This document shows positions 7,510-58,400 of a stretch of DNA of 64,000 nucleotides, one piece after another. The stretch comes from an uncultured Lentisphaeria bacterium (GTDB lineage: Bacteria > Verrucomicrobiota > Lentisphaeria > Victivallales > Victivallaceae): positions 4,174 to 68,173 of the forward strand of contig CASFJW010000048.1 in the NCBI GenBank assembly GCA_949295105.1, written 5' to 3'. The position numbers and the translations under genes are program-made. Positions within the stretch are counted from its first letter, which is position 1; each line of letters starts with the position of its first letter. The notes below the pieces were generated by a model. The model was not told the DNA's origin and made no database searches. It worked only from the letters and a program-made list of their open reading frames with translations.

Positions 7510-8208
7510 GTGTGGAGTTTTCCGATAACGCGTCGTTCGGCGGTGATCATCATTGTCAGTGTGGTGATGAATTACCTGCTCTTTCTGTTCACCAGCGCTC
7601 TCAACCTGCCGATTCGCCTTGATGACACCGGAACGGTTTATTCGGCGCTGCTGCTCGGGCCGGCGGCAGGAGTGGTGGTGGGAGTGGTACAGGCGTTGAT
7701 TCTGGCGGGATTTTATTACGGCTGGGCCGGCGGCTTGAATCTGATTGTCAGCGTAGTGCTCGCGCTGATTGCCGGGATCGCCGGTCGTCGCGGGGACCCC
7801 CGGGGATTTCTTTCCGCGCTCGGCTTGATGACATTGGGTTACTTTGCATTGCTTTTCATCGCTTCGCTGCCGCTGCTCATCCCGGAGTGTTGTGGAGGGG
7901 TGTCACTCTGCGTGCCGTTCGCGGAAATCGTTTCCAGACACTGGTTTAATGTCTCTTTTCCCGGATATTTCACCATGCCGATGATTTCGGCGATGGCGAT
8001 GACGCTGCTGGCCGCATTTGCGGTCATAATCACCTCTGGCGTCCCACCGCAACCGGTGCCGGAGAGGCAGTCCGCCGTCAAAGCAGGGAAAGGAAAAAAG
8101 AAAAAAAAGAAAAAGAAGAAAGACCGCAAGCAGAAAGCAGCCAAGAGTGACGGGGAAACGGTATCGGTTCCGTTATCTCCAGAAACCCAAAAAACGGAGG
8201 TGCACTAA
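7510..8208 (+). CDS. Multi-pass membrane protein, ECF-transporter S-component-like, with C-terminal poly-lysine tail
   Basis: GTG start with GGAGGA upstream and 5-6 hydrophobic helices. The LPIRLDDTGTVYSALLLGPAAGVVVG pattern is typical of ECF S components. The tail reads KAGKGKKKKKKKKKDRKQKAAK. Confidence 0.6.
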   Translation: MWSFPITRRSAVIIIVSVVMNYLLFLFTSALNLPIRLDDTGTVYSALLLGPAAGVVVGVVQALILAGFYYGWAGGLNLIVSVVLALIAGIAGRRGDPRGFLSALGLMTLGYFALLFIASLPLLIPECCGGVSLCVPFAEIVSRHWFNVSFPGYFTMPMISAMAMTLLAAFAVIITSGVPPQPVPERQSAVKAGKGKKKKKKKKKDRKQKAAKSDGETVSVPLSPETQKTEVH

Positions 8209-8879
8209 TGAACCAAATAAGAAAAATGCTGACGCTGGGAATCATTTTGAGCGGCGGGTTACTTTTCGGAGCCGAGGAGAGTGAAGCCTTTAAAGCGGCA
8301 TCGACAGCGGAGATCTCGCCGCTGCTGTATGATTTCTCGGTGCAGGACGGCAAGATCACTCAGAAAACGAATGGATACGCCGCCGAATATATCTCCATTA
8401 CGCCGGACAACAAAATTCTGCTTATCCACGATCACAACAATAACAAAGCTGAATATCAATGCCTGCAGTGGAGAACGCCGTCGGTGTTCGACGCGAAAAG
8501 CGGGATGTTCGCCTTTGAATGGGAAGTCCGGGTAGTTTCCACGCAGGCGGACAAGCCGGAGAGCTTCATGGTGGTAATCCGGAGCGGAGAAGACAAGAAG
8601 CTGGCGCGCACCGCGGTGTTCCGGGTGGCGGCGGATTTCGTATCGACGCCCTGGGGGAAATTTCCGGTTGACGCCAGCAAGCCGATTGTCTGCCGGGTGC
8701 TGCAGGATATGTCGACAGGCGATACTGCACTTTATGTAGACGGCAAGTTCATCGCCTCGGGGCTGCTCAAAACCGAGGCCGATGAGAAACAGCGTACCTG
8801 TTTGGTTTTCGGCGATGGTTCAGGAGCGGTCGGCGGCCGGGTTGAACTCGGTTATTTCAAGGTCGGCGAGATCGAATAA
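8208..8879 (+). CDS. Secreted stand-alone lectin-like (LamG/ConA-type) jelly-roll protein, paralogous to the C-terminal module of the four ~940-955-aa proteins
   Basis: TAATG overlap with the upstream gene and a signal peptide. It has the shared signature ...TALYVDGKFIASG...CLVFGDGSGAVGGRVELGYFKVGEIE. Confidence 0.7.
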   Translation: MNQIRKMLTLGIILSGGLLFGAEESEAFKAASTAEISPLLYDFSVQDGKITQKTNGYAAEYISITPDNKILLIHDHNNNKAEYQCLQWRTPSVFDAKSGMFAFEWEVRVVSTQADKPESFMVVIRSGEDKKLARTAVFRVAADFVSTPWGKFPVDASKPIVCRVLQDMSTGDTALYVDGKFIASGLLKTEADEKQRTCLVFGDGSGAVGGRVELGYFKVGEIE

Positions 8880-11722: not shown

Positions 11723-11736
11723 CGCCGGTGCCGTAC

Positions 11737-17520: not shown

Positions 17521-18783
17521 ATGGTATCAAGAAAGAAAATCACCGCCGCAGTATTGCTGACGGGGGTCGCCGCGTTGGCGGTGTTTGTGGGCTACCGGGT
17601 GGCGACGACCACCGATCCGACGAAACAGAAGGCCAAAGTGGAAGCCCCGGTCGTCGTCAACATGGTATTGCCGGAAACCGAAACCATGCGTGACGAACGC
17701 AGTTTTTCCGGCACCACCTGGGCGTGGAGTTCCTACGATATCGATCCCAAGGTTTCCGGCAAACTTGAAAAGCTCAACTTCGATATCGGCGACGCGATCA
17801 AACGCGGTGACCTCATCGCCAAGATCGATGATGTGGAATATATCCAGCAACTGCGACAGGCGGAGGCGAACCTCGAACTGGCCCGCGCCAAATCAATCGA
17901 AGCCGCCGAACTGCTGAAGCTGCGCACCAATGAATATAACCGTCAGGTGCAGCTCTTCGAAAAAAACGCCACTACCCAGGCGAGTTTCGAGTCCGCCGAA
18001 AGCACCATGAAAGCCCAGACGGCAACTGCGGCGATGTGTGAGGCCGAGGTGAAAAGCTGGGAAGCGCAGGTGGCGAATGCCCAGTTACGGGTGGCCGACA
18101 CCACGATTTCCGCCGACTGGACGAGTGGTTCCGATTACCGATATGTCGGCGAACGCTACGTTGACGAGGGGACATTGATTGCCACCGGCAAACCGATTCT
18201 TCAGATTCTGGAACTCGACCGGATCAAAGTCTATGTCCAGGTCATCGAACGCGACTATCCCTACCTGCAGATCGGTCAGGAAACGACCGTCGTCGCCGAT
18301 GCTTATCCGGAACGGGAATTTTCCGGTACCATCACCAACATCGCCAACGCGCTGAGCGAGAAAACCCGCAACGCGCTGGCGGTGATAACAGTCCCGAACA
18401 ACGATCTCAGTCTGCGTCCGGGCATGTTCGTCCGGGTAAAAGTGGTGCTCTCCGTACACACCGACGCCCAGACGGTGCCGCTCAACGCCGTGCTGACCAA
18501 GAACAACGTTCAGGGGGTGTTCTGCTACGATCGGAAAACCGAGACCGCGCAGTTCGTACCGGTCAAGACCGGTCTCTCGACCCGCGAGCGGGTGGAGATC
18601 GTTGAACCCGAACTGACCATGCCGGTCATCACCGTCGGCAACCATCTGCTGGAGTCCGGCAAACCGGTGGCCATCTCCGAACTGTCACGCCGCCAGCTGG
18701 TCGATTCACTCTACCAGAAAGGCAAAACGGCGGATCCGGAAAAAACCCAGAACGATCAGCCCGGGGATGATGTCCAGCCATGA
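17521..18783 (+). CDS. Efflux RND transporter periplasmic adaptor (membrane-fusion protein, HlyD family)
   Basis: N-terminal TM anchor, a lipoyl-like motif (GDLIAKIDD), a coiled-coil hairpin and beta-barrel segments. The 4-nt ATGA overlap couples it to the RND permease. Confidence 0.85.
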   Translation: MVSRKKITAAVLLTGVAALAVFVGYRVATTTDPTKQKAKVEAPVVVNMVLPETETMRDERSFSGTTWAWSSYDIDPKVSGKLEKLNFDIGDAIKRGDLIAKIDDVEYIQQLRQAEANLELARAKSIEAAELLKLRTNEYNRQVQLFEKNATTQASFESAESTMKAQTATAAMCEAEVKSWEAQVANAQLRVADTTISADWTSGSDYRYVGERYVDEGTLIATGKPILQILELDRIKVYVQVIERDYPYLQIGQETTVVADAYPEREFSGTITNIANALSEKTRNALAVITVPNNDLSLRPGMFVRVKVVLSVHTDAQTVPLNAVLTKNNVQGVFCYDRKTETAQFVPVKTGLSTRERVEIVEPELTMPVITVGNHLLESGKPVAISELSRRQLVDSLYQKGKTADPEKTQNDQPGDDVQP

Positions 18784-21700
18784 ACATCGCTGAATTTTCC
18801 GTCCGGCGGCCGATCTTCATCTCGATGGTCTGCTGTATTGTGATCGTCCTCGGCGGTATCGCCCTGCGTTACCTGCCGGTGGACCTCTTTCCGGAAATCG
18901 ATTTTCCGGCGGTTTCCATCACCACCACCTACGATGACGCCAGTCCCGAAGAGGTCGAGGAATTGATCTCCCGCCCGATCGAACGCGCCATCAGCGCGGT
19001 CACCGGCATTGAGGAGATCAGTTCCAATTCCGCCGAGGAGACCAGTTCGGTCACGGTGAAGTTCACCTGGGGAACCAACCTCGAGGAGGCGGTTTCCGAT
19101 ATCCGGGACCGCATCGACCGGGTCATCAAATCGCTGCCGGATGACGTGGAACGCCCGACGCTGCGCCGTTTCGATTCGTCGGCGATGCCGATCATGCGAC
19201 TCGGCGTGAGTACCTCCATGGATCTGCTCGAAGCCAACAAACTGCTCGAGGACCAGGTGCAGTACCGGCTCGAACGTATCGAAGGCGTCGCCTCCGCCAA
19301 CATCACCGGCGGCCTCACCCGGGAAATTCAGGTGCTGCTCGACGTCGACAAGGCGAAGTTGCTCAACATCCCGCTCAATACCCTGCTCGAAAAACTGCGG
19401 GCGGCCAACGTCACCACTCCGGCCGGCAACCTCAAATCCGGAACCAAGGAAATCCGGATGCGCACCCTCGGCACCTTCGAAACCCTTGACGATATCCGCA
19501 ATCTTTTCGTCACCATCGGACCGGATGGTTCGCACATCCTGCTCAAGGACATCGCCGAGGTGATCGATACCCATACCGACGTTACCCGCCACGTCCGAAT
19601 CAACGGAAAACCGGGTATCTACATTCAGATCTACAAACAGTCCGGCGCCAATACCGTCGCGGTGGCCACGGCGGTCAGCGAGGAACTCGAAAAGATCAAC
19701 GAGGAGATGAGCCACGAATTCAACATCGTCGCCGTCTCCGACTCCTCGGAATACATCCGCCGGTCGATCGACAACGTCGCCGACACCGCGGTCACCGGCG
19801 GTCTGCTCGCAGTGATTGTGTTGTTCATGTTTCTCTGCAACATCCGCAGTACGCTGATCATCGCGCTCAGCATCCCGCTCTCGGTGATTGCAACTTTCGT
19901 GCTGGTTTACTTCTGCGGTTACACCATCAACATCATGACCCTGGGTGGACTTGCCCTCGGCGTCGGCATGCTGGTGGACAATTCGATCGTGGTGCTCGAA
20001 AACATCGTCCGACTTCACGATGAGGGCATGGAGCGCAAGGAGGCGGCGATCCAGGGAACCAGCGAAGTCACCGGGGCGTTGGTCGCCAGTACTCTCACCA
20101 CGGTGGCGGTGTTTCTGCCGCTGGTCTTTACCCAGGGCATGGCGGGAGTGATGTTCCGTCAGCTGGCGGTGGTGATCGCGTTCTCGCTGCTCTGTTCGCT
20201 GGTCTCGGCGCTTTCACTGGTGCCGATGCTCGCCGGGTTGCTGCTCAGCAAAAGTCTTCATTCAGGGAGTTCCGATTCATGGTCAGCTCGGCTGGGCGGG
20301 ATCTTTCTCCGGGCCTTCGACGCCCTCTCCGACTACTACGCGGAGATGCTTGATCTCGTGTTGCGCCACCGGCTGATGACCATTATGATCTCGTTGCTGC
20401 TGCTGGCGGCTTCGCTGCTGCTGACGCCGATGATCGGTACCGAACTGATGCCGTCGAGTGACGAGGGACAGCTGCGAATCGAACTCGAGGACGCCGTCGG
20501 TACCGGCGCCGATTTCGTAAATGAAACGGTAATGATAACCGAACCGATCATCCGGCGAGAAGTCCCCGGCCTGATCAGCTGGACCAGTTCCGCCGGGGCC
20601 AGCAGCTGGCGTTCGGACGGCGGTCACAAGGCGGACTACAACCTGAAATTGACCCCGCGCTCACAGCGCGAAGAGAGTTCCGAAGCCATCGCCGCGCGGC
20701 TCGGAAAGATCCTCAACCAATTGCCGGGCACTGTATTCCGGGTACGCTCCCGCCAATCCTTCTTCGGCGGCAGCAGCGGCGGGGAATCGCTGACCATCGA
20801 TGTCCGCGGCTTTGATTTTCAAACCTCCGAGGAGCTGGCCAAACAGATCTCGGAAATCGTCGCCGGCGTCCACGGCGTCACCGACGTGCGGCTCAGCCGC
20901 GATCTCGGCATGCCGGAAACCCGCGTGATCATCGACCGCCAGAAAGCGGGAATCATGAAAATTTCCGTCGAAACCATCGCCGACACCCTGCGGACGGTTC
21001 TGGCCGGCAGCGAAGCGGGCAACTTCCGTGAAGACGGCGACGAATATGAGATCCTGGTCAAGGTGCGGGATGCCGATCAGCTTAACGCCGAACGTATTCT
21101 TGATATGACCGCCCGCAACGATGACGGTGAAAGCATCGCTCTGCGCAACCTCGTGACAATGGAACAGGTATTGGGTCCGGTGGCGATCGAACGTAAAAAC
21201 CAGCAGCGGGTGTTGACCGTTTCGGCGAACCTTTTCGAACGCGACCTCGGTTCCGCGGTCGCCGAGGTCAGAGAGAAGCTCAAGGCGCTCGAACCCCTGC
21301 CGGCGGAATTTTCCATCGCGTTTACCGGCAATTACGAAGATCAACAGGAGACCTTTGAAGAGCTGGGAATGGCCTTCGCACTTGCGCTGATACTGGTCTA
21401 CATGGTGATGGCCTGCCAGTTCGAATCGCTGATCGACCCGCTGATTGTGATGTTCTCGGTGCCGTTAAGTGCCATCGGGGTACTGATCGCGCTTTTCACC
21501 ACCTACACCACTTTCAACATGCAGTCCTTCATCGGATGTGTGATGCTCGCCGGAATCGTGGTGAACAACGCCATTCTGCTGGTGGATACCGCTAATCTGC
21601 TGCGCCGGCGCGACGGAATGAAGCTCAGCGTCGCGATCCGGGAAACCGGCAGACGGCGGCTGCGGCCGATTCTGATGACCACGTTGACCACGGTTCTCGG

Positions 21701-28264: not shown

Positions 28265-28301
28265 AAAAAAACCGATTATGCGATAATTCGCATAACCGGT
28301 T
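28265..28301 (-). terminator. Rho-independent terminator of the three-paralogue operon (minus strand)
   Basis: On the minus strand: AACCGGTTATGCG-AATTAT-CGCATAATCGGTT (12 Watson-Crick pairs plus 1 G-U) followed by T7. Confidence 0.7.
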
Positions 28302-28327: not shown

Positions 28328-31156
28328 TTATTCGGCCACCGTCCCGATCGTCAGATAAGCAAGTTCCGCCTTGCCGCCGACCTGCCCGGAGGCATCGCCG
28401 ATGTGGCAGAAGGGAGTTTTTCTCCAGGCGCCGTCCGTGGTTGTTCCGACCTGCATAAGTTTGCCGTTGATCCACAACGCGTAGGCACCGTTTCCGGTGT
28501 CGAGCGCCACCCGGAAGGTGTTCCACTGGCGAAGATCAACCCCCGGGAACTTTACTTCGCCCCGGTTGCAGATCACCCGCGTCGGAGTAAAACGGTAGAA
28601 TACCTCGTATGATCCTTCGCCACTTTTGCGCGGCGGCGCCAGGGCGACCTGGAACGATGGCTGCTCCTCACCGTTTTCCGCCGGAATCCGCAGCTTCCAT
28701 TCGGTCACCATAAGCGGCGGCAACGTCTTGAAAAGGGCCGGATCGTTGATGGTGAAACGCATATAATCCGCGCCCTTCTCTCCGGAGTCATGGATCAACT
28801 TCATCGCGCCGTCCTCGATCGGCATGAACTGCGGCTTGTAACCGTTTTTGAGTTTACCGGTGACCTGGGCCTTGCCGTCAACCACCGCAACCCCGGCGAC
28901 CGGAGTGATCGCCCCGGACGCGGCCGGTTCCAGTTCGGGAGCCAGTTCAATACCGCAGGTGCCGACCATCACATAAGCAAGTTCCGCCTTGCCGCCGATG
29001 CCGGCCGAACCGTCGCCGATGTGGCAGAAGCCGTTTTCCCGATCAGCACCGGCGCTGGTCACCCCCGCCTGCCGAATCTTGCCGTTTACCCACAATGCAT
29101 AAGCGCCGTTGGAGGTGTCGAGCGCCAGCCGATAGGTGTTCCACTGGGTGAAGTCAACCCCCGGCAGCTGTACCACACTCTGATTACAGGTCATCCGCGT
29201 CGGAGTAAACCGGTAAGAGATCTCATAATCCCCTTTTCCGCTTTTGCGCGGCGGCGCCAGAACAATCTGAAATGACGGCTGCTCCTCGCCGTTTTCCGCC
29301 GGAATCCGCAACCTCCACTCGGCAACCAGCACTCTCGGCGGCACTTGGACAATCTGCGGATCCGCAGCCGAAAATCTCATATAATCCGCACCTTTTTCGC
29401 CGGAATCATGGATCAGTTTGATCACCCCGTTCTCAACCGGCATGAATTTCGGTTTGTAACTGTTCCTGAGCTTTCCGACGATCTTGGCCTTGCCGTCGAC
29501 AACGGAAACGCCGACGATCGGCTCGATGGCTTCCGAAGCCGCCTGTTCCAACCCCTCCGGAGCAGTCGGAGCATACTTGATCCGGACGCAAAAGTCCCGA
29601 ACCATCAGCTCGGTATTGCCGGACGCGTCGATGGTGACCGCAAAATCGTTGGCGCCCTTTTTGATCGATTCCGGAGCAAGGCTGAACGTAACCAGTCCAT
29701 CCTTCCGGCCGGTCGGAGCAAATTCCCTGCCGTTGACCGAGAGCGAGATCTTCGCATCCTGCGGAGCATCCACCAGCAGTTCAGCGGTGACGGCGGGGTC
29801 ACGCTTCAACGCTTCCGGGGAAGCGGTGTCATCACCGATGGTGATCGAGAAATTCAATGGTTTTCCGGAGACGACCTTCAACGGTTCGCCGGGATCCAGC
29901 TTCGGCAAATTGTTGAAGCGGTCACCTTCCCGGAGGAAATGGAAACTGCGGTAGCCGCCGGAACCCCGTTCTGTCGCATAATAAACCTTGTCATAACGGT
30001 CAAGTTGATCGAGCGGGGTCCGGGTTATATCGCGCAACCCTTTGTATTCAAGGTTGAAGTGGTAAACGCCGTCGCAGCCGTCAGCCATCGCCGCCGCTGA
30101 ACGGGCAAGATAGAAGTCGCGCCCGCCGCGCCCGGGAATGTACTTCACCCCTTTGCGCTGAATTCTGGATTCGTCGAGCGAAGCATAGAATTTGATCCCA
30201 TACTTGTGCGCAAGCTCCGCGGAAACCCGCCACGGATTGAGCTGGAAGTAGCTCGCCCCGATCATGATGTCGAAAAGTTTCTCTTTCATCCACTGCTCAA
30301 GATCGATCCCGACCGCCCGGCAGTATTCCACCGAATCGGGAACCCGGATCGCCACCAGAATCGGCCGCCCGCGCTTGCGTCCGGCCGCTTCGGTGATCTC
30401 CCGCAGTTCCTTCATGAAGTCGGTCATCATCTTCAGTTCCCGCGGCGAAGCGGTGCCGCCGTCGGCGACCGATTTCAGAAGCTGCATGTGACGCATGAAG
30501 TCATATTCAATTCCGTCGATATCGTAATTGGCGCAGATTTCCGCGACGATCGCCGCCATCCGGTCCCGCACTTCCTTGTGGGTGAAATCAGCCGCGCTCC
30601 AGGAGCAGTTCTTCGGTGGTTTCGCCTTGGAGCCGAGCAGAAATTCCGGATGCTGACGCTTGAAGGGCGACATCAGAAACATCGGCTTCTCTTCGGTATG
30701 GCCCTGATCGTGGGTATCGTTGACACGCAATGAAGCGAAGAACTCCAATCCCTGTTCCCGGCAATATTCCTCGGCGATTTTCAACGGATCAGTCCCCATC
30801 GCAAGGAGTTCTCCGGTCACGTTGCGCATCTTCGGCGCATGCGGCGGATCGGCCAGCAGCTGATCTCCCGCGGTCGTCCGGTACGTCAAATGGCCGAAGC
30901 CACTCGACAGCGGACAGTAAAATACCGAATCGATTGCGGTTCCCTGCGTATATACCAGCCGCCGATTGATGAAATTTTCCTTGCTGGCGGCAAGTTCCCG
31001 CGGATAATAGATCGCGTCACAGCCGTCGGTGTTGTAGATGATCTCTCGCTTGCGGTTGAGCATTTCAGCGCGTTTCGCTTCGAAATCATCCGCAGCCAGC
31101 GCCATCCCGCCCAACAGCAGCGCCGCCAGCGACAATGACCAGTACTTTGTTCTCAT
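28328..31156 (-). CDS. Secreted multidomain protein, paralogue A: GHL10/DUF187-like TIM-barrel N-terminus + Ig-like + two tandem lectin-like jelly-roll modules
   Basis: Start ATG at 31156, with the GGAGGAAAAG RBS inside the 3' end of the upstream gene. Signal peptide MRTKYWSLSLAALLLGGMALA. Family motifs: YNTDGCDA, AGDQLL, LEFFASLRVNDTHD, EVRDRMAAIVAEICANYDIDGIEYDFMRH, GRKRGRPILVAIRVPDS. The C-terminal ~207-aa module is duplicated. Confidence 0.8.
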   Translation of the reverse strand: MRTKYWSLSLAALLLGGMALAADDFEAKRAEMLNRKREIIYNTDGCDAIYYPRELAASKENFINRRLVYTQGTAIDSVFYCPLSSGFGHLTYRTTAGDQLLADPPHAPKMRNVTGELLAMGTDPLKIAEEYCREQGLEFFASLRVNDTHDQGHTEEKPMFLMSPFKRQHPEFLLGSKAKPPKNCSWSAADFTHKEVRDRMAAIVAEICANYDIDGIEYDFMRHMQLLKSVADGGTASPRELKMMTDFMKELREITEAAGRKRGRPILVAIRVPDSVEYCRAVGIDLEQWMKEKLFDIMIGASYFQLNPWRVSAELAHKYGIKFYASLDESRIQRKGVKYIPGRGGRDFYLARSAAAMADGCDGVYHFNLEYKGLRDITRTPLDQLDRYDKVYYATERGSGGYRSFHFLREGDRFNNLPKLDPGEPLKVVSGKPLNFSITIGDDTASPEALKRDPAVTAELLVDAPQDAKISLSVNGREFAPTGRKDGLVTFSLAPESIKKGANDFAVTIDASGNTELMVRDFCVRIKYAPTAPEGLEQAASEAIEPIVGVSVVDGKAKIVGKLRNSYKPKFMPVENGVIKLIHDSGEKGADYMRFSAADPQIVQVPPRVLVAEWRLRIPAENGEEQPSFQIVLAPPRKSGKGDYEISYRFTPTRMTCNQSVVQLPGVDFTQWNTYRLALDTSNGAYALWVNGKIRQAGVTSAGADRENGFCHIGDGSAGIGGKAELAYVMVGTCGIELAPELEPAASGAITPVAGVAVVDGKAQVTGKLKNGYKPQFMPIEDGAMKLIHDSGEKGADYMRFTINDPALFKTLPPLMVTEWKLRIPAENGEEQPSFQVALAPPRKSGEGSYEVFYRFTPTRVICNRGEVKFPGVDLRQWNTFRVALDTGNGAYALWINGKLMQVGTTTDGAWRKTPFCHIGDASGQVGGKAELAYLTIGTVAE

Positions 31157-31157
31157 T

Positions 31158-34007
31158 CTACTTTTCCTCCATGGGGGTTGAAGTTGGTTCATCTGCGCTC
31201 GGGATTGCACCGATTCTCACATATTCCAGTTCGGCCCGGCCGGAAACCCCGGCCGAACCGTCGCCAATGCTGATAAACGGTTCGGGACGACTCGCTCCGT
31301 CGGAGATCACCCCGTTGGCAACCGGCTTGCCGTTGATCCACAAAGCAGCATCCCCGCTCCGGGTATCGATCGCCACCCGGAAGGTATTCCATTCATCCGC
31401 TTTCAACGCGGCGGGACCAACCACGCCGAGATTGGTCACTACCCCGTCCGGAGTGGAACGGCAGCTGAATTCCCAGACCCCGCCGCCGGCTTCACCGCGC
31501 GAGGGCGCGAGCACCAGTTGAAAACTCGGCGCTCCGGTTTCTCCCCCCGTCACCCGCACCCGCCATTCCGCGCCGAGAATCGCCGGAGGATTTTCGAGCA
31601 GCTGCGGATCGGTCACCGCAAACGCCTGGTAATCGGCCCCCGCCTCTCCCGAATCGTGAACGAGGCGGATCACATCCCGTTGAACCTCCGCATATTCCGG
31701 ACGATAATCGTTGCTCACCATGCCGGTGGTTTCGATTTTACCATTCCGGCTGAAGATCTCCGCCTGCGGCACAATCTCCGCCGCCACCGCATCGACTAAA
31801 GCCGGCGCCAGCGGCCGACGGTAACGGATGCCGAGCGCGAAGTCATTGAGCAACACCCAGGATTGATGGAGCCGGATGTTTTTCCACAACCCGGAACCGG
31901 TACCGAAACCGGAAAGCGAACCGAAAAGCAAACTGTTCTCATTCATTCCGGAAACATTTTCCGTGTTGCCGGAAATTCGTCCTCCCTCATCGCTGACGCG
32001 CATCCGCACCGCCGACACCAGCAGCGGCTTGCCGTCGACGGTAAGAGTGATCTTATTGTCATCGAGCACGATTCCGTAGTGATGGAAACCGTCGGCCGTG
32101 TTGAACGCAACACTGCCGCCTCCGAACTTGAACGCGATTTTTTCCGGTTCAAAGGAGACCACTTCGACATTTTTCCCGTTTGCGATCCGCACCGCAACCG
32201 CTTCCGGATCGGTGCTTTTCTCAACTTTGAGTTCAAAATCGACCTTCAGCCGTTGTCCGTTGAGAGCGGGCAGCGGATAAAGCAGGCTGGTTGCGTAACC
32301 CGGACGGCTGGTGTTGTCGGCCAGCCGATAAGCCCCGTCAACAATTTTTTCCGCCTCGGCGAAATCCTCGATCATGAAGATCCGCCGCCACGGCGGCTGG
32401 TTGGCGCCGGAGAGGAGTTCGGTGCCGGAAAGAATCGTTTTCGCCTCCCCGCCGCCTGACCGGGACGAGGGCGGCAGCGAGATGATCAGATCATTGACGC
32501 CACGCCGGATATCCTCGGGACGAATCGAATAGACCAGCACATCACCGCGACGCTGGATCGCCTCATAACCGACGCCATTGACCTTCAGAATAAAATTGTG
32601 GCCGGGCTCATTGCTGCGCAGCATCGCCACCACCTCGGGCGAACGCTCTCCCGCCGCTCCCGGATCATCGCCGATCGTCATCTGAAAACTGTACGATCCG
32701 CCGGGAGCAATCAGCCGCGGCGCTCCGGGTTCGAGCTTCGGCAGGTTGTGGTAACGCGCGCCATCCCGCAGATAGGTGTCCGGAGTGTAACCGCCGGTAC
32801 CGCGTTCGGTCGCGTAATAGACCTTGTCTTCAAATTCAAGATCGGCGCGGTTGCCCCGGGCCCGGTCACGCAGCGGCTCGTACTCCATGTTGAAGTAGTA
32901 AATACCGTCGCAACCGCCCTCCAGCGCCGCCAGCGCCCGCGCACTGTAGGCCTCCCGGCTGTTGCGCGCCCCCAGCGGCAGCGAACCGCTGATCCGCGAC
33001 TCATCGAGCGAAGCGTAGAACTTCAAATTATGACGCCGGGCAAACGCGACGGTCGACGCCCAGGGATTCAACTGAAAGTAGCTGCTGCCGATCAACAGGT
33101 CGAAACTCTTATTCCGCGCCCAGGCCGCAAGATCAATGCCGACCGCCTTGCAATAACGCAGGGAGTCCGGCACCCGGACCGCCACCAGAATCGGCCGGCC
33201 GCGTTCGCGTCCGGCGGCCTCGGTAATCGAACGCAGACGCTTCATGAAATCAGTCATGAGTTCGAGTTCCTGATCAGAGGCACTCTCCCCCCACGCCACA
33301 CTCTTGAAAAGCTGCATGTGGCGCATGAAATCATATTCGATGCCGTCAATATCGTAGTTGGCGCAGATTTCAGCAACGATCGCCGCCATCCGGTCACGCA
33401 CCTCCTCGCGCGCAAAATCCACCGCGGTCCAGGAACAATAGGGCGGCCGCTCGGTTTCACTGCCGAAAAGCAACTCCGGATGCGCAGCTTTGAAAGGGGG
33501 AAACAGGAAATAAGGCTGGTTGCGGCTGTGTCCCGAGTCGTGGGTGTCGTTGACCCGAAGCGAAGCGAAAAACTCCAGATTCTCCCGTTTGCAGTACTCC
33601 TCGGCGAGCTTCAGGGGATCGGTTCCCTGCTTCAGTAGTTCACCGGTCGCATTGAACTCATCACCGGAACACTCCTCCGGCGGGGGATCAATCAGCAGCT
33701 GATCACCCGCGGCGGTTCTGCTGGTAAGATAACCGAACCCGCTCGATACCGGACAGTAGAAGAGGGAGTCGATTTTGCTTCCCCGGGTGAATCCGAGCCG
33801 CAGATTCTGGAAATTCTCCCCGGTCACCGGCAATTGGCGGGGATAGTAAAGCGCATCACAACCGTCGGTGTTGTAAATCACCTCGCGTTTCCGGTTGATC
33901 ATCTCCTGCCGTTCCGCTTCGAACTCAAAATTGAACATCTCGCAACCGGCTCCGAAAAACATCAGCGCCGGCACCGCCAACCGACCGATCGTTTGCAATT
34001 TTCTCAT
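31158..34007 (-). CDS. Lipoprotein/secreted multidomain protein, paralogue B: GHL10-like TIM barrel + Ig-like + two different jelly-roll modules
   Basis: 949 aa. The signal peptide has a lipobox-like FGAGC. It carries the same N-terminal motif set, a middle module (QPPWRRIFMIEDF...SLLFGSLSGFGTGSGLWKNIRL) and a C-terminal module ending FISIGDGSAGVSGRAELEYVRIGA. Confidence 0.8.
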   Translation of the reverse strand: MRKLQTIGRLAVPALMFFGAGCEMFNFEFEAERQEMINRKREVIYNTDGCDALYYPRQLPVTGENFQNLRLGFTRGSKIDSLFYCPVSSGFGYLTSRTAAGDQLLIDPPPEECSGDEFNATGELLKQGTDPLKLAEEYCKRENLEFFASLRVNDTHDSGHSRNQPYFLFPPFKAAHPELLFGSETERPPYCSWTAVDFAREEVRDRMAAIVAEICANYDIDGIEYDFMRHMQLFKSVAWGESASDQELELMTDFMKRLRSITEAAGRERGRPILVAVRVPDSLRYCKAVGIDLAAWARNKSFDLLIGSSYFQLNPWASTVAFARRHNLKFYASLDESRISGSLPLGARNSREAYSARALAALEGGCDGIYYFNMEYEPLRDRARGNRADLEFEDKVYYATERGTGGYTPDTYLRDGARYHNLPKLEPGAPRLIAPGGSYSFQMTIGDDPGAAGERSPEVVAMLRSNEPGHNFILKVNGVGYEAIQRRGDVLVYSIRPEDIRRGVNDLIISLPPSSRSGGGEAKTILSGTELLSGANQPPWRRIFMIEDFAEAEKIVDGAYRLADNTSRPGYATSLLYPLPALNGQRLKVDFELKVEKSTDPEAVAVRIANGKNVEVVSFEPEKIAFKFGGGSVAFNTADGFHHYGIVLDDNKITLTVDGKPLLVSAVRMRVSDEGGRISGNTENVSGMNENSLLFGSLSGFGTGSGLWKNIRLHQSWVLLNDFALGIRYRRPLAPALVDAVAAEIVPQAEIFSRNGKIETTGMVSNDYRPEYAEVQRDVIRLVHDSGEAGADYQAFAVTDPQLLENPPAILGAEWRVRVTGGETGAPSFQLVLAPSRGEAGGGVWEFSCRSTPDGVVTNLGVVGPAALKADEWNTFRVAIDTRSGDAALWINGKPVANGVISDGASRPEPFISIGDGSAGVSGRAELEYVRIGAIPSADEPTSTPMEEK

Positions 34008-34028
34008 AATCTGCTCCGAGTTCAGAAA

Positions 34029-36851
34029 TTACTTCGCGGAATTTCCGGGCACTCCAATCCGGAAATATTCAAGTTCTGCCTCTCCTCCGACATTACCGGA
34101 ACCGTCCCCAAAGAAGAAAAACGGCGCCTTGCGTCCGGTTCCGGCCGAGATCTCTCCCGAAGCCGCCAGTTTACCGTTGATCCAGAGCGCCCCCTGACCG
34201 GAAACGGTATCGACGACCGCCCGGAAATCGTTGAATTTCCGGGTGTCAATGCCGGCGACCGCGCCCAGACTGGTATCCACGCTGCCGTTGCCGAGACGGA
34301 CGTAAAGCTCCCAGTCACCGGAATTATCGGACCGCCGCGGCCCGATTACAAACTGAAGCGCATTCTCCCCCGCTCCGGCGTCAACCACCCGGGCCCGCCA
34401 TTCGGCGATGATCACCGGCGGCGGAGTTGCGCTCATGAGTTCAGGAGAGAGAATTGTGATAGTCTGATACGCTGCTCCGGTCCCCACCCGTTCGATATCA
34501 TGAATCATTCCGAGCGCATTGCCGCGCACCGGAAGAAATTCCCGGCGGTAGCTGTTCTTGATCTGGCCGGTGATCTCCGGCCGGCCATCCGCAACTCCGA
34601 CCGCGGCCAGCGGAACCAATTCGGCGGTCCCGGCCGCCTTGATCGATTCAGCCAGCGGAGCCGGATAAGTGACGCGGATACCGAAATCATTGAGTTTCAG
34701 CATCGTATCGGCAAAGGTAACATTCTTCCACAGCGACGCGCCGGTCCCCGGGCCGGAGATCGAACCGAGGATGATTCCATTGGTTTCCAGTCCGGGGATG
34801 TTCTCGCTCTTGCCGATCAACATCGCCTCCTCGGAACCAACCTTCATCACCGGTTTTGCACTGAGGATCTCCCGGCCGTCGGCGCAGAGCGTCATCCGGT
34901 CGGCGTCAAAGAGAAGTTCATAATGGTGGAATGCATCCGCAGTGTTGAAATCCACGCTCTCGCCGGCGAATTTGAAACCGATTTTCGTCGGCTCAAAGGT
35001 GATGGTCTCAACAAATTCACCGTTGGCAACGCGAAGAACCACCGCCTCCGGATTATCGGATTTTTCCACCTTGAGATCGAAACCAAGTTCGATTTTCTCC
35101 CCGGCATACCCGATCAGCGGATAGAAAAAGCTCGTCGCAAAACCGTCACGGGCAGTCGGATCCTCAAGCCGCAACGCCCCGTCCACAATGCTCTCCTGAT
35201 TGGGGATACTGGTGTCCATCCGGAAAAAACGCCGCCAGGGCGCCTGATCGCGCCCGACCAGCATCTTGTTTCCGGACAGAATGACCAGCCGCCGATCGAG
35301 AACTTCCGCCTCCGGAGAGACCTTGATTTCGATTTCGTTGTCGCCGCAGCGCAGCGCGCCGGCGTCGAGATCGAAGAAGTGGTCGTTTCCGGCGGTGCGG
35401 ACCGGTTTGAAGAGTTTACCGTTGATGCCGAGGGAAATATCTTCGGTTTTGACATTGGTGCGCAGAACCGCGGTCACCACCGGATTACGTTCAGCCACGG
35501 CGGGATCGCTGAAGTCGTCGCCGATCACCATCGTAAAACGATATGATGACCCCGGAGCGATCAGCCGCGGCGAAGCGGGGTCGAGCTGGGGAAGCAGATT
35601 GAAACTCTCGCCGTTGCGGACGTAACCGCCGGCCTGGTATCCGCCAGAACCGCGTTCGGTCGCGTAATAGGATTTGTTCACCAATCCGAGCTGATCGCGA
35701 TTGCCGAGCGCCCGTTCCCGCAGCGGGGCCTTCTCCAGGTTGAAATAATATACGCCGTCACAGCCGCTCGTGATCGCCGCCAGCGCCCGCGCACTGTAGG
35801 CCTCCCGGCTGTTGCGGCCCCCGAGCAGCGGCAGCGAACCTGAGATCCGCGATTCGTCGAGCGAAGCATAGAATTTGATCCCGTGCCGATGGGCGAGTTC
35901 GACCGAATCCTTCCACGGCGAAAGCTGGAAATAACTCGAACCGATCATGATGTCAAAGAGCTTATCCTCCATCCACCGTTCAAGATCGATGCCGACCGCC
36001 CGGCAATAACCCACCGAATCAGGGACCCGGACCGCCACCAGAATCGGCCGACCGCGTTTGCGTCCGGCCGCCTCGGTGATTTCGCGCAGTTCCTTCATGA
36101 AACCGGTCATCATCTCCAGCTCCTCTTCCGAGGCGTGCCCGCCCCACGCAACCGATTTCAGAAGCTGCATGTGGCGGTGAAAATCGTATTCGATGCCGTC
36201 GATGTCGTAGTTGGCGCAGATTTCGGCGACAATCGCCGCCATCCGGTCCCGAACCTCCTGATGGGTGAAGTCCGCCGCACTCCAGGAACAGTAGGGAGGA
36301 CGGTTGTCGATGGTGCCCATCAGAAACTCAGGATGCTGACGCTTGAAGGGCGACATCAGAAACATCGGCTTCTCCTCGGTGTGCGCCTGGTCATGGGTGT
36401 CATTGACGCGCAACGAGGCGAAAAACTCCAGATTTTCATCCCGGCAGTATTCCTCGGCGATCTTCAGCGGATCGGTACCCTGCGCGAGCAATTCACCGGT
36501 CACATTGCGCATCTTCGGCGCATGCGGCGGATCGGCCAGCAGCTGATCGCCGGCGGTCGTCCGGCTCGTCAGATGGCCGAACCCGCTCGACAGCGGACAA
36601 TAGAAAACCGAATCGATTTTACTGCCTTGGGTATATTTAAGCCGCTGATCGATGAAATTCTCCTTGGTCGCGGCAAGTTCCCGCGGGTAATAGACCGCAT
36701 CACAGCCGTCGGTGTTGTAGATCACCTCGCGAGGGCGATTGAGCATTTCCTGCCGCCGGGCTTCAAATTCGTCTCCGGAAAAGAACGAACACCCGCATGC
36801 CGTCAGCAACAACAACGGCACTGCAACTCCGGTCAGTCTCCGCAACTCCAT
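34029..36851 (-). CDS. Lipoprotein/secreted multidomain protein, paralogue C: same architecture as B
   Basis: Start ATG at 36851 with AGGAG 8 nt upstream. The signal peptide has the lipobox LLLTAC. The N-terminal domain shares long near-identical runs with paralogue A. The middle module reads QAPWRRFFRMD...IILGSISGPGTGASLWKNVTF and the C-terminal module ends FFFFGDGSGNVGGEAELEYFRIGV. Confidence 0.8.
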   Translation of the reverse strand: MELRRLTGVAVPLLLLTACGCSFFSGDEFEARRQEMLNRPREVIYNTDGCDAVYYPRELAATKENFIDQRLKYTQGSKIDSVFYCPLSSGFGHLTSRTTAGDQLLADPPHAPKMRNVTGELLAQGTDPLKIAEEYCRDENLEFFASLRVNDTHDQAHTEEKPMFLMSPFKRQHPEFLMGTIDNRPPYCSWSAADFTHQEVRDRMAAIVAEICANYDIDGIEYDFHRHMQLLKSVAWGGHASEEELEMMTGFMKELREITEAAGRKRGRPILVAVRVPDSVGYCRAVGIDLERWMEDKLFDIMIGSSYFQLSPWKDSVELAHRHGIKFYASLDESRISGSLPLLGGRNSREAYSARALAAITSGCDGVYYFNLEKAPLRERALGNRDQLGLVNKSYYATERGSGGYQAGGYVRNGESFNLLPQLDPASPRLIAPGSSYRFTMVIGDDFSDPAVAERNPVVTAVLRTNVKTEDISLGINGKLFKPVRTAGNDHFFDLDAGALRCGDNEIEIKVSPEAEVLDRRLVILSGNKMLVGRDQAPWRRFFRMDTSIPNQESIVDGALRLEDPTARDGFATSFFYPLIGYAGEKIELGFDLKVEKSDNPEAVVLRVANGEFVETITFEPTKIGFKFAGESVDFNTADAFHHYELLFDADRMTLCADGREILSAKPVMKVGSEEAMLIGKSENIPGLETNGIILGSISGPGTGASLWKNVTFADTMLKLNDFGIRVTYPAPLAESIKAAGTAELVPLAAVGVADGRPEITGQIKNSYRREFLPVRGNALGMIHDIERVGTGAAYQTITILSPELMSATPPPVIIAEWRARVVDAGAGENALQFVIGPRRSDNSGDWELYVRLGNGSVDTSLGAVAGIDTRKFNDFRAVVDTVSGQGALWINGKLAASGEISAGTGRKAPFFFFGDGSGNVGGEAELEYFRIGVPGNSAK

Positions 36852-37151
36852 TACCTGATCTCCTGTTTTTATTATAAGCTTGTTCAGGCGCTGCAACCCG
36901 CCACGACAAAATCGTTTATCCTTCCCGGACCGGAAACGCAGCCGCACCGGCATCGGTCAGCCCGGAAAAAATCCTCGTTCCGCCGGCTTCCGAACCTATT
37001 TCCACCCTCACGGGCTTGCTCCCGCCGCACTGTCGGGCGGAGCTATAATACACCCATGCGAATGTAAATTCAAGTCTTCCAGAAAAAACCATCCGGAAAA
37101 ATTGCCTGCTTGTCAGCGATATCCGTCCGGAATCCCCCCCCTCCCGGACAT

Positions 37152-55428: not shown

Positions 55429-55455
55429 TTGACAAAGAGTCTAAAATGATATATC
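55429..55455 (+). promoter_or_regulatory. Promoter-like TTGACA-N15-(TG-n)-TATATC upstream of paralogue D
   Basis: TTGACA at 55429-55434, TG at 55447-55448 and TATATC at 55450-55455. The short spacer is offset by an extended -10. Confidence 0.35.
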
Positions 55456-55532
55456 TTAACAGAGAAACGCTCCGCCAGGAAACCTGGTGGGAACTCTCGG
55501 TATTTGTTTCCAGAAACCCATGGAGGAATCTT

Positions 55533-58400
55533 ATGCGCCTACCCCAAAGAATGTCTCTCCCGCTTCTGCTGACAACCGTGATGGCCACTTTTCTGTTCGC
55601 GTCTCCACTCTCCGGCGAAGAACGCGATGACGCCTGGGAGAAATTGCGTACCGAGGCGTTGAACCGGAAACGACGGGTTATTTACAATACCGATGGTTGC
55701 GACGCGGTCTATTTCCCGCGCGAGCTGGAGGCGACCAAGGAGAATTTCATCAGCCGGCGCATCGGAAACACCCGGGGAACCCGGGTTGATTCACTCTTTT
55801 ACTGTCCGCTGGCGTCCGGCTTCTGCCAGGTGACGAGTCGGACCACCGCCGGAGATCAGCTGCTGGTCGATCCTCCGCACGCGCCCCATACCCGCAACGT
55901 GACCGGGGAATTGCTCGCGCAGGGCACCGATCCACTGAAGATCACGGAGGAATACTGCCGGGAACAGGGGCTGGAGTTCTTCGCCTCGATGCGGATGAAC
56001 GACACCCATGACGTCTCTCTCGCCGCCGATACTCTCCGCCCCGACGGCATGCACATGCTCTTTCCGAAGTTCAAGGCCGATCATCCGGAATATCTCTGCG
56101 GCTCCCCGGACAAAAAACCACCGCATGGTTCATGGAGTGCGGTGGACTTCACCCATCCGGAGGTTCGCGAACGGCTCAAGGGTGTGATCCGGGAACTCTG
56201 CGAAAACTACGATATCGACGGCATTGAATATGACTTCACCCGGTCGGCGTGTTACTTCCGCAGCGTCGCCTGGGGAAACACCGCCAGCCCCGAGGAGCTG
56301 GAGACCATGACGAACTTCATCGCCGAACTGCGTAAAATGACCGAGGAGATCGGCAGGAAGCGCGGCCGGCCGATTCTGGTGGCGTTCCGGGTCTCCAATG
56401 CGATCAAATATCTCCGGGCGACCGGACTTGACGTGGAAGAGTGGCTTCGGCGCGGCCTCGGGGACATGATCATCGCCGACAACATGAAGAAACTCAACTC
56501 CTGGGAGGATACCGTGGCGATGACCAGGAAATACGGCGTCAAATGTTACGCCGCGTTTGACAACCTTGCCTGTGACCGGGTATCCGCCGCCGCCCCTTCA
56601 CGTCACGCCGCTTTGTTTTACGGATGGATCGGTTCAGCACTGATGAGCGGTGTCGACGGGCTCTGCTACTTCAATATGGAAAACCCGGTCTGGATGAAGG
56701 AACTCTTTCTGGCCGACCTCTCGGAAGTCGCCGGTCTCGACAAACGTTACATGGCCAGCGACGCCAGAGCCCTGGCTTACGTCACCAACCGCGATCTGCG
56801 CGACGGTTCGAGTTATGCGGAACTGCCGATAATCGTGCCGGAGCAGCCGCTGGCGATCTCTCCGCGCAATCCGTGTCGAATTTCATTTATGCTCTCGGAC
56901 GATTTCGACTCCCCGGAACTGCGCGAGTCCCCGCCGGAGGTCACCGCCGAAGTGACCGTGGATGCCTTCCCGGAGGTGGAATTCACGCTTGATGTCAACG
57001 GTTCAACGCTGAAACCGGTGGCGAGAAACGGCAAGGTAGTCACCTTTTCGATTCCGGCGACGCTGCTGCACCAGGGGAAAAATGAGTTCATCATCCGGGA
57101 ACTGCCCCGCACTACCGTGAATGTCGAGCAGTTCCGGATGATTCTTCACGGCAGTTCGCTGCTGCGCGGTTCGCTTCAACCGCCGTGGCGACGGATTATG
57201 AAGATCGGCGATTTTTCGGTTGCGGAATCGATCGTCGACAACGCCTACCGCCTGAACGATGCCGAAACCGAACCTCAATACGGCGCGTCACTGCTCTACC
57301 CGCTGCTGAATCTGCCCGGCTACCGGTTGCGCACCCGTTTTAAAATGAAGTTTGAATACAGCGACACTCCGGAAGCGGCGATAGTCCGGGCCGCCAACGG
57401 CAGTTTCGTGGAGATGCTCTGCTTTTCGCCTGACGGCATCACCTTCAAATATGCGGATCGTTTAGTTCCGTTCCGAACCGACGACAAATTTCACAGCTAT
57501 GAGCTGATCATGAAGAAGAAAAATCTCGTGCTCTTTGCCGACGAGAGAGAGATCGCAAATGTGCCGCTGGTCATGCCCGCCGACTCACCGGAGGCGGCGA
57601 TCACCGATGCAAGCGAAAATGTACCGGGAATGAACAACCGCAGTCTGATTTTCGGTTCGATCTCCGGCGCCGGCCGCGGAGCGACGCAATGGAAGCACAT
57701 TGAGCTGGTCAAGAACTGGAGTTCGATCGAGGACTTCCTGTTGCAGATCAAATTCCCGAAGAAACAGTCGAAAGAGTTCACCGCCGCCATGAACGAAACC
57801 CCGGAATGGTTTTTCAATTTTGCCGCCGTTGACGGCAAGCCGCCGCACGACATCTCTTTCAACAATGCCTACCGCCCGAGACTGCTGACCGTCAACCCGG
57901 AAAACGGCGCTCTGCTTCTCAATCACGATTCGAAGCAACCCGACGCGGGCTTTCAGAATATCTCGGTGCGTTCCAGTGAAATCACCGAAAAGTACAGCGG
58001 CTTCTACGTCGCCACCTGGCGGCTGCGGGTGATCAAGAACAACGGCGGAGAGCCGGCGTTCCAGATCATGATCGCTCCGGTCGGTCCCTCCGGCAAAAGC
58101 GACCGGACGCTGACGGTTAAGATCTCCGGGGATAGTGTGCTGCCCAATTTCGGGGAGCCGGTTTCACTCGACACCAGGGAATGGCACGATTACCGGATCC
58201 TTTTCAATCCAGCGGACGGCGAAGCGGGTCTCTGGATCGACGGTAAACTCGTCGCCACGGACACCATCGGACGGGACGCCGGAGCCCCGCGCGGGCGCGC
58301 TTTCTTCGGAGATGGTTCCGGTCAGGTGAGCGGACTGGTCGAACTTCAGGAGCTGAAAATCGGCGCAATTCCGCTTGAAAAAATCGCCGCAACGAAGTAA
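55533..58400 (+). CDS. Secreted multidomain protein, paralogue D of the GHL10-like + jelly-roll family
   Basis: ATG at 55533 with GGAGGA 5 nt upstream and signal peptide MRLPQRMSLPLLLTTVMATFLFASPLSG. Motifs: YNTDGCDAVYFPRE, AGDQLL, LEFFASMRMNDTHD, NYDIDGIEYDF, GRKRGRPILVAFRVSN. The middle module reads QPPWRRIMKIGDF... and the C-terminus ends AFFGDGSGQVSGLVELQELKIGA. Confidence 0.8.
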   Translation: MRLPQRMSLPLLLTTVMATFLFASPLSGEERDDAWEKLRTEALNRKRRVIYNTDGCDAVYFPRELEATKENFISRRIGNTRGTRVDSLFYCPLASGFCQVTSRTTAGDQLLVDPPHAPHTRNVTGELLAQGTDPLKITEEYCREQGLEFFASMRMNDTHDVSLAADTLRPDGMHMLFPKFKADHPEYLCGSPDKKPPHGSWSAVDFTHPEVRERLKGVIRELCENYDIDGIEYDFTRSACYFRSVAWGNTASPEELETMTNFIAELRKMTEEIGRKRGRPILVAFRVSNAIKYLRATGLDVEEWLRRGLGDMIIADNMKKLNSWEDTVAMTRKYGVKCYAAFDNLACDRVSAAAPSRHAALFYGWIGSALMSGVDGLCYFNMENPVWMKELFLADLSEVAGLDKRYMASDARALAYVTNRDLRDGSSYAELPIIVPEQPLAISPRNPCRISFMLSDDFDSPELRESPPEVTAEVTVDAFPEVEFTLDVNGSTLKPVARNGKVVTFSIPATLLHQGKNEFIIRELPRTTVNVEQFRMILHGSSLLRGSLQPPWRRIMKIGDFSVAESIVDNAYRLNDAETEPQYGASLLYPLLNLPGYRLRTRFKMKFEYSDTPEAAIVRAANGSFVEMLCFSPDGITFKYADRLVPFRTDDKFHSYELIMKKKNLVLFADEREIANVPLVMPADSPEAAITDASENVPGMNNRSLIFGSISGAGRGATQWKHIELVKNWSSIEDFLLQIKFPKKQSKEFTAAMNETPEWFFNFAAVDGKPPHDISFNNAYRPRLLTVNPENGALLLNHDSKQPDAGFQNISVRSSEITEKYSGFYVATWRLRVIKNNGGEPAFQIMIAPVGPSGKSDRTLTVKISGDSVLPNFGEPVSLDTREWHDYRILFNPADGEAGLWIDGKLVATDTIGRDAGAPRGRAFFGDGSGQVSGLVELQELKIGAIPLEKIAATK

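Follow-up and report, generated by a model that had tools for sequence, protein, structure and literature searches.

Three tandem genes for large exported proteins in a Victivallaceae contig

We analyzed a 64,000-nucleotide (nt) stretch of contig CASFJW010000048.1 from an uncultured Lentisphaeria bacterium of the family Victivallaceae (assembly GCA_949295105.1), referred to as the window here. We focused on three co-directional minus-strand open reading frames (ORFs), genes A, B, and C, which encode paralogous proteins of 940, 949, and 942 amino acids (aa), and on a fourth paralog, D, on the plus strand. A first-pass annotation, made from the sequence alone, had described the trio as an operon-like tandem with gaps of 21 and 1 nt, closed by one strong terminator, and had pointed to a further copy near 55.5 kb. 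The ORF coordinates agree with those given there, as does the position of D (Table 1), and an identical 940/949/942-aa trio in an identical context was present in independent gene calls on two ENA metagenome contigs. Each of the three starts is preceded by a GGAG-type ribosome-binding site, namely, AGGAG at 36860-36864 for A, GGAG for B, which follows A after a spacer of 21 nt, and GGAGGA for C, which is separated from the stop codon of B by a single nucleotide (TAG-a-ATG). The terminator lies 26 nt past the stop codon of gene C, and its 16-bp stem and U7 tail bear out the earlier call; the 91-nt stretch that holds it folds at -38.9 kcal/mol (z = -5.1 versus shuffles). A simple scan revealed no excess of internal terminators (11 found versus 11.4 expected), with the reservation that the same scan overlooked the terminator at 28301->28265, and an Rfam scan of 27.5-38 kb returned no RNA element. 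Given the short gaps, the ribosome-binding site of each gene, the single strong terminator, and the lack of a convincing internal one, a single transcript for A-B-C is likely. Its candidate promoter, a consensus match only, lies ∼190 nt upstream of the start of A.

All three proteins carry signal peptides, two of them with a lipobox cysteine, as had been annotated before. Lipoboxes were called with a PROSITE-like rule ([LVI..][ASTG][AGS]-C after the n/h-region within the first ∼35 residues), which identified LLTAC with Cys19 in protein A and FGAGC with Cys22 in protein B. Protein C has a signal-peptidase-I type site (ALA|A) without a cysteine, and the rule found no lipobox in C or D. A and B are hence probable lipoproteins, and from the signal types A and B would be lipid anchored in the envelope, while C would be soluble.

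The N-terminal half as a GH156-type catalytic module

In each of the three proteins, we assign the first ∼500 residues with high confidence to the glycoside hydrolase family 156 (GH156) type of the CAZy classification, i.e., a (β/α)8 barrel followed by an Ig-like domain. In a phmmer search of protein A against the PDB, residues 134-373 matched EnvSia156, the founding inverting exo-α-sialidase of the family (6RZD, 6S00, and 6S04), with an E value of 1.8e-14; the matched entry, 6rzd, is described as "exosialidase from uncultured bacterium pG7." A profile of 27 members of the clade to which the window proteins belong extended this match to residues 92-501 of EnvSia156, which comprise most of the barrel and the Ig-like domain (E=1.1e-24). 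We rebuilt this stretch from the HMMER alignment, used it to retrieve full-length relatives, and aligned 21 of these into a profile of the EnvSia156 clade. When the two clade profiles were compared with hhalign, they aligned over 430 columns including the N terminus (probability of 99.8%, E=8.8e-30), placing YNTD of our clade on LNED of EnvSia156; when only the first 150 residues were searched against the PDB with phmmer in order to place Asp14, there was no match.

The predicted fold points in the same direction. The AlphaFold2 (AF2) model of residues 1-500 of A has a mean predicted local distance difference test score (pLDDT) of 89.2 and a predicted template modeling score (pTM) of 0.89, and its top three Foldseek matches are the GH156 structures 6s00, 6s04, and 6rzd (E ∼2e-22, TM score of 0.62), with alignments of ∼530 columns that span both domains. 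They are followed by Cwp19 of Clostridioides difficile (5OQ2 and 5OQ3; E=5e-13) and then by generic TIM-barrel glycosidases.

The first-pass annotation had likened the N-terminal part to the GHL10 barrel (PF02638), which it took for an uncharacterized family, and had ascribed no established function to the genes. The resemblance stands at the superfamily level and fails at the level of the family: A, B, and C score 16.6, 14.1, and 14.1 bits with PF02638, compared with a gathering cutoff of 27.9, and sub-threshold matches occur in 8 of the 27 clade members. PF02638 is also carried by many proteins of the EnvSia156 clade, so the relation to GHL10 is one of superfamily, and the earlier impression is explained in the same way. 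The supposed lack of a characterized relative did not hold, since the nearest proteins by sequence, profile, and fold are GH156 exosialidases whose key residues are kept, and with this confident match to a characterized CAZy family the novelty claimed for the genes falls away for the catalytic half. None of the Pfam labels tried for A to C (GHL10, Melibiase, GH18, Laminin_G_3, and DUF1080) exceeded its threshold, NCBIfam offered nothing meaningful, and a protein-cluster look-up gave no name for A, B, or C. Membership among the classical sialidases of GH33, which are six-bladed β-propellers with Asp-boxes and an Arg triad, was rejected given the TIM-barrel fold and the lack of a BNR match in A to D with Pfam.

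The weak GHL10 matches (14-17 bits), the rank of Cwp19 as second-best structural neighbor, and the PBP2, MreC, and L,D-transpeptidase genes among the window neighbors would suit a GHL10/Cwp19-like peptidoglycan hydrolase, or another neutral-sugar glycosidase, that remodels the cell's own envelope rather than acquiring nutrients. Cwp19 shares the TIM-barrel superfamily and has been named as the closest structural neighbor of EnvSia156 itself (PMC6811678). However, its identity is 12%, GH156 is favored over it by about nine orders of magnitude in Foldseek and by 1e-24 versus 0.22 in the profile search, the GHL10 threshold of Pfam is missed, the Asp/His dyad and Arg/Arg/Asn clamp specific to GH156 are invariant (see below), and the cell-wall genes are located across a terminator on other transcription units. 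We consider a wall hydrolase very improbable and rejected it on residue conservation and relative scores, as we did the reading of the proteins as inert lectins that is taken up below.

Conserved catalytic residues and a distinctive subsite signature

In EnvSia156, Asp14 is the general base and His134 the general acid, Arg129, Arg202, and Asn346 form the carboxylate clamp, Arg246 is a buried conserved arginine, and Trp164, Phe203, Phe278, and Trp279 make up an aromatic +1 platform (PMC6811678). In the profile-based alignment, the equivalents of D14, R129, H134, R202, and N346 are invariant in A to D and in 27 of 27 clade members (D48, R148, H153, R226, and N371, respectively, in A; the general-base Asp of D is D83), and the same applies to the equivalents of R246 and W164 (R275 and W190 in A). 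The N-x-D motif of β1 and the R-x-N-D-x-H motif of β3 are shared as well, the latter as SLRVNDTHD in the clade aligned with SMRMNDVH in EnvSia156 by phmmer, profile search, and hhalign. According to a later survey of the family (Mann et al. 2022, bioRxiv 10.1101/2022.06.28.497753), GH156 proteins count as sialidase-like when at least four of five active-site residues are present; all five are present in each of A to D.

The clade also carries fixed differences from EnvSia156, namely, E13T, N15G, H17D, N/Y135D, M348E, F203H, F278Y, and W279F. In the +1 platform, the tryptophan is kept as W190, whereas F203, F278, and W279 are replaced by H227, Y307, and F308 in 26 of the 27 members; paralog D, with S, M, and K at these positions of the predicted +1 subsite, is the sole such clade member examined. 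Furthermore, C53 is replaced by S, and Y20 is kept as Y in only half of the clade sequences. Several of the fixed replacements lie at or directly beside positions that in EnvSia156 contact the glycerol chain, C4-OH, or C5 of the sugar (Asn15, Ser16, Tyr20, Cys53, Tyr135, Gln351, and Thr352; PMC6811678). Given that the glycerol-contact residues are less conserved within GH156 as a whole (PMC6811678), these changes bear on specificity and not on family membership. With five key residues invariant and contact positions replaced, the chemistry at the anomeric center and the carboxylate appears conserved; the remainder of the sugar, like the leaving group, may be recognized differently.

Lectin-like C-terminal modules

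EnvSia156 has ∼500 aa, whereas the window proteins reach at least 940 aa, with a signal peptide or lipobox and two additional ConA-like modules. The AF2 model of residues 431-940 of A (pLDDT of 92) is all-β and consists of the Ig-like domain followed by two jelly-roll sandwiches, which we call M and T. Together with the models and Foldseek matches of the catalytic half, it bears out the earlier description of a TIM barrel with Ig-like and lectin-like modules. The Foldseek matches of this part are ConA/LamG-type folds, among them the two-DUF1080 protein BT3469 (4JQT), the lectin wings of the Vibrio cholerae sialidase (1KIT), and laminin and neurexin LG pairs, as well as galectins and the receptor-binding domains of botulinum toxins. 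BT3469 and the V. cholerae wings resemble the window proteins in that tandem jelly-rolls of this type are linked to, or found with, glycan-active enzymes, but the likeness is at the level of the fold only, with TM scores of 0.23-0.28 for the two-domain alignment and 11-12% identity. For the T module, Pfam scores reach 24.5 bits versus a threshold of 27.6 for Laminin_G_3 (PF13385) and 22.9 versus 26.8 for 3keto-disac_hyd (DUF1080, PF06439).

To assess how these modules are distributed, we built local hidden Markov models (HMMs) of Ig, M, and T and searched them against all fetched loci of the clade (numbered with the prefix L here). All clade members have the Ig-like domain after the barrel, as EnvSia156 does and as is general for GH156 enzymes, while M and T are confined to long forms from Lentisphaeria and Victivallales, where they are shuffled. 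A, B, and D have the arrangement M-T, L004 has M-T-T, and C lacks M and has two T copies that are 66% identical, so the C-terminal module content differs within the trio, as had been claimed. At L001, a single 1,449-aa ORF (10016-14365; P0002, Lentisphaeria MAG Tb.RUG.64, where MAG stands for metagenome-assembled genome) reads barrel-Ig-M-barrel-Ig-T, which looks like a fusion of two tandem paralogs or possibly an assembly or frameshift artifact; another protein, P0256 (1,649 aa), contains four matched stretches.

The window also encodes a free-standing, secreted T-module protein, showing that T is an autonomous, portable domain. Its gene is situated directly upstream of a gene for a PAS/HisKA/HATPase sensor kinase (8906-10063, plus strand), and the T protein may be a glycan-sensing partner of this kinase. 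The start of the T-module gene is overlapped by the stop codon of a gene for a predicted 232-aa multi-pass membrane protein that ends in KKKKKKKKK (7510-8208, plus strand). A homolog search with the T module alone returned nothing and missed even the parent proteins, which we treat as a word-index limit and not as evidence of absence.

Paralog age and selection

The earlier claim that the first ∼400 aa are strongly conserved is well founded: over residues 1-440, B and C are 69% and 73% identical to A, compared with 27-44% in the C-terminal halves. For the barrel alone, identities are 62-73% among A, B, and C and 47-52% between D and these three, while the C-terminal halves share 22-44% among the paralogs; D and A are 43% identical overall and 52% in the N-terminal part. 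Selection on the protein had also been proposed from identical peptides that use different codons in the three copies. The ranges cited for it (30515-30570, 33345-33400, and 36197-36255) all encode RDRMAAIVAEICANYDID, and in an identical 26-aa run, EVRDRMAAIVAEICANYDIDGIEYDF, 14 of the 26 codons are not the same in all three genes, in line with the proposal. By the Nei-Gojobori method, the number of synonymous substitutions per site (dS) in the barrel is ∼1.0-1.5, with a ratio of nonsynonymous to synonymous rates (dN/dS) of 0.16-0.31, while dN/dS in the C-terminal half is 0.29-0.54. Judged by their codons, the three genes arose by duplication long ago and have been kept by purifying selection, and they are not products of recent gene conversion.

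These values are also relevant to the idea that the proteins are catalytically inert surface lectins or adhesins in which a GH156-like fold serves as a binding scaffold. The two extra ConA-like modules per protein and the probable lipid anchor of two of the three would fit such a role, and the D14A variant of EnvSia156 did bind sialosides weakly on glycan arrays (PMC6811678). Yet the catalytic and carboxylate-binding residues are invariant in 27 clade members and four paralogs, and no other part of the proteins is as strongly constrained as the barrel, which makes loss of catalysis hardly credible.

TABLE 1 Features of the gene trio and related elements. Coordinates refer to the window unless a locus is named.
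Feature	Coordinates	Strand	Details
Gene A	34029..36851	-	940 aa; 36851->34029
Gene A modules	barrel 35667-36734; Ig-like 35292-35654; M 34647-35279; T 34047-34619	-	
Gene A catalytic codons	D48 36708-36710; R148 36408-36410; H153 36393-36395; R226 36174-36176; N371 35739-35741	-	
Gene B	31158..34007	-	949 aa; 34007->31158
Gene B modules	barrel 32814-33881; Ig-like 32448-32801; M 31818-32432; T 31200-31772	-	
Gene B key residues			D48, R151, H156, R229, N373
Gene C	28328..31156	-	942 aa; 31156->28328
Gene C modules	barrel 29984-31051; Ig-like 29612-29971; T1 28952-29524; T2 28334-28903	-	
Gene C key residues			D44, R144, H149, R222, N368
Intrinsic terminator closing the three-gene unit	28265..28301 (28301->28265)	-	16-bp perfect stem, 4-nt loop, U7 tail
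Sigma-70-like promoter candidate	37045..37073	-	TTGAAT, 17 nt, TATTAT; consensus match only
Paralog D	55446..58400	+	984-aa ORF; likely start is internal Met at 55533; barrel-Ig-M-T
Free-standing secreted T-module protein	8208..8879	+	223 aa; found with T-module HMM; 29-34% identical to T modules of A-D
PATR-type protein loci	L047 11593-14457		also L006, L007, L010, L026, L028, L032

Distribution and genomic context of the clade

Homologs were found in Victivallales, Lentisphaeria, and Kiritimatiellae MAGs obtained from the guts of sheep, goat, deer, horse, and human (Hadza) hosts, and a single MAG has as many as five loci; the hosts are mostly herbivores, represented by rumen and hindgut MAGs. 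Judged by these homologs, the window probably also comes from a gut or rumen bacterium. In an exhaustive profile search, the number of representative sequences, one per cluster at 50% identity, was 809 for E<=1e-30 and 3700 for E<=1e-3. The survey of Mann et al. 2022 (bioRxiv 10.1101/2022.06.28.497753) reports GH156 in "Verrucomicrobiota," including Victivallis vadensis, with a subset longer than 800 aa and with fusions to GH33 and CE4. The taxa and fusions match those of our clade, whereas the enzymes shown there to be active belong to the EnvSia156 similarity cluster and not to this clade, and neither the barrel-Ig-M-T architecture nor a triple tandem array is described in the sections consulted. 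Our literature search linking GH156 to Victivallales/Lentisphaeria-type taxa returned nothing beyond this preprint.

When the genes flanking the trio were scanned for nan genes, transporters, or other carbohydrate-active enzymes, only housekeeping genes appeared (PBP2, MreC, cmk, MarR, a pyridoxal phosphate enzyme, RdgC, TrmB, and RsmB), so such a setting was rejected for the trio; an L,D-transpeptidase gene is also among the window neighbors. Elsewhere in the clade, 10 loci that contain a clade barrel have a NanA-like gene within 10 kb on the same strand, and so does L032, where the contig ends inside the GH156-like gene. The gene order is GH156-like, NanA-like, and SiaT-like in L021 (gaps of ∼200 and 17 nt), GH156-like, PATR protein, BNR protein, and NanA-like in L006, L007, and L010, and SiaT-like and NanA-like with the GH156-like gene ∼4-7 kb further on in L015 and L018; in L019 and L048, the NanA-like gene is immediately upstream of the GH156-like gene. 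Compared with the PDB, the NanA-like lyases match NanA at ∼1e-42 and DapA at ∼1e-29, and NanA models rank first in NCBIfam. The symporter matches 5NV9, the sialic-acid symporter SiaT of Proteus mirabilis, with an E value of 1e-85. Within the clade, there are also fusions to BNR sialidase propellers (two), CE4 (three), and GH20 (one). The same label of SiaT was rejected for a symporter of the SSF family encoded next to the long-form homolog at L043, which scores equally with SMVT and SMCT; the other SSF symporter at this locus had no match in the PDB.

Two further associations were observed around clade members. Directly downstream of the short-form GH156-like gene, seven loci encode a protein of ∼950 aa with faint matches to PATR (autotransporter-associated repeat), often positioned between the GH156-like gene and the BNR and NanA-like genes. 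At L046, two GFO/IDH/MocA oxidoreductase genes and a DUF1080 gene flank the clade member (11715-14309 and 18161-19558). The pairing of GFO/IDH/MocA with DUF1080, the 3-keto-disaccharide hydrolase family, is associated with oxidative (3-keto) glycoside cleavage, and DUF1080 is the same family that the T module of the window matches below threshold.

Proposed function of the trio

We propose that A, B, and C are exported exo-hydrolases of family GH156 that remove terminal sialic acid or a close relative, with modules that target different glycans, and we put the probability of this reading at roughly 60%. By analogy with EnvSia156, Asp48 (equivalent to Asp14) would activate water as the general base and His153 (His134) would act as the general acid, while Arg148, Arg226, and Asn371 would clamp the carboxylate at C1 of an acidic sugar of the 2-keto-3-deoxy type. 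The outcome would be a single-displacement, inverting, exo-acting release of terminal N-acetylneuraminic acid (Neu5Ac), N-glycolylneuraminic acid (Neu5Gc), 2-keto-3-deoxynononic acid (KDN), or a close relative. Judging from their modeled folds, M and T would serve as glycan-binding modules of the ConA-like type that steer each enzyme to its own sialoglycans, for instance, those of host mucin or N-glycans. In this proposal, such targeting would be the reason why three old paralogs were kept side by side, and it is plausible that they have been subfunctionalized for different glycans.

Several observations weigh against this proposal. Identity to EnvSia156 is as low as ∼19-23%, and both M and T score below the Pfam thresholds, their putative binding role being deduced from the fold. 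The contacts to the sialic-acid glycerol chain, C4, and C5 are changed (N15->G, S16->C or N, N/Y135->D, and the Q351/T352 loop), and three new invariant acidic residues, D51, D154, and E373, appear near the -1 site. No NanA-like gene is present in the 64-kb window, and the NanA-like lyases found elsewhere stay under the NCBIfam equivalog cutoff. Moreover, nan-type contexts occur only at short-form members (∼530-570 aa, mainly from Kiritimatiellae), which are 41-55% identical to A in the barrel, while long forms sit among housekeeping genes or next to GntR/FCD regulators and non-specific SSF symporters. All GH156 proteins with shown activity fall into the EnvSia156 similarity cluster, and one Opitutales GH156 from outside this cluster is inactive on 4-methylumbelliferyl-Neu5Ac (4MU-Neu5Ac). 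Mainly because of the subsite replacements, and also because of this distribution of active and inactive enzymes, we hold the view that the natural substrate is a conventional sialoside with only moderate confidence.

The same evidence bears on whether the clade keeps the inverting mechanism and carboxylate clamp of GH156 but has been retuned to another ulosonic or nonulosonic acid, such as 3-deoxy-D-manno-octulosonic acid (Kdo) or 3-deoxy-D-lyxo-heptulosaric acid (Dha) of pectic rhamnogalacturonan II (RG-II), KDN, the microbial legionaminic and pseudaminic acids, or O-acetylated or de-N-acetylated sialic acids. The replacements at or flanking the glycerol-tail, C4, and C5 contact positions, the new acidic residues, and the altered +1 platform would fit such a shift, as would the inactivity of one GH156 outside the EnvSia156 cluster toward 4MU-Neu5Ac. 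Further points in its favor are the mostly herbivore rumen and hindgut hosts, the CE4 fusions, which are compatible with modified sugars, and the lyases below the equivalog cutoff, which could cleave other 2-keto-3-deoxy acids. At L046, BNR genes are mixed with GH78, GH28, GH29, and DUF1080 genes, a set with its GFO/IDH/MocA genes that is pectin-like or mixed and would also suit plant pectic glycans. On the other hand, NanA-like, SiaT-like, and BNR sialidase neighbors recur, BNR sialidase and GH20 fusions are a classic signature of host sialoglycan use, and EnvSia156 itself is tolerant at C5, binding Neu5Ac, Neu5Gc, and KDN, in a family whose glycerol contacts vary (PMC6811678). We regard a retuned sugar as a tentative alternative, clearly less probable than the release of sialic acid or a close relative.

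Other genes of the window

Near the start of the window, the plus strand encodes a GntR/FCD regulator (1807-2652) and a protein with a prepilin-type N-methylation motif (2840-4108), whose products are 36% and 33% identical to those of the two genes directly upstream of the GH156-like gene at L043. This suggests a recurring module of regulator, pseudopilin-like protein, and secreted enzyme in Lentisphaeria. The next gene (4125-5987, plus strand) encodes a 620-aa protein that matched nothing in Pfam or the PDB and is directly followed by a gene for a secreted, apparently β-rich protein of 184 aa (5984-6538, plus strand). Three kilobases upstream of paralog D, a 715-aa protein (50221-52368, plus strand) weakly resembles GH36 α-galactosidases, with a sub-threshold Pfam score of 23 bits for Melibiase and a PDB match to AgaA at E ∼5e-4, and may be another divergent TIM-barrel glycosidase.

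Implications for the GH156 family

GH156 is a young family, founded in 2018, and includes only three enzymes with shown activity, all from one sequence cluster. The catalytic family and the type of mechanism assigned here are already known, and the trio is not a new kind of system. What is new is modest and comprises three things: a populous, unnamed GH156 clade marked by its own subsite signature, the arrangement barrel-Ig-M-T, and the tandem array of three genes. The assignment corrects the annotation of four large genes of the window and provides a name and a testable mechanism for a large clade of Lentisphaeria, Victivallales, and Kiritimatiellae from gut and rumen whose members are labeled "hypothetical" in all sources consulted. 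It also ties the clade to sialic-acid utilization clusters via its NanA-like, SiaT-like, and BNR neighbors and pinpoints subsite replacements that may alter specificity. Judged by these features, the proteins, which come with lectin-like modules of their own, are candidate sialidases or ulosonic-acid hydrolases of new specificity. It is rather doubtful, though conceivable, that the clade is a functionally distinct GH156 subfamily that removes an acidic cap sugar other than Neu5Ac (Kdo or Dha of plant RG-II, KDN, or bacterial nonulosonic acids); if so, the three tandem paralogs, whose ConA-like modules differ, would together form a set of tools for handling different acidic glycans in the guts of herbivores and humans.

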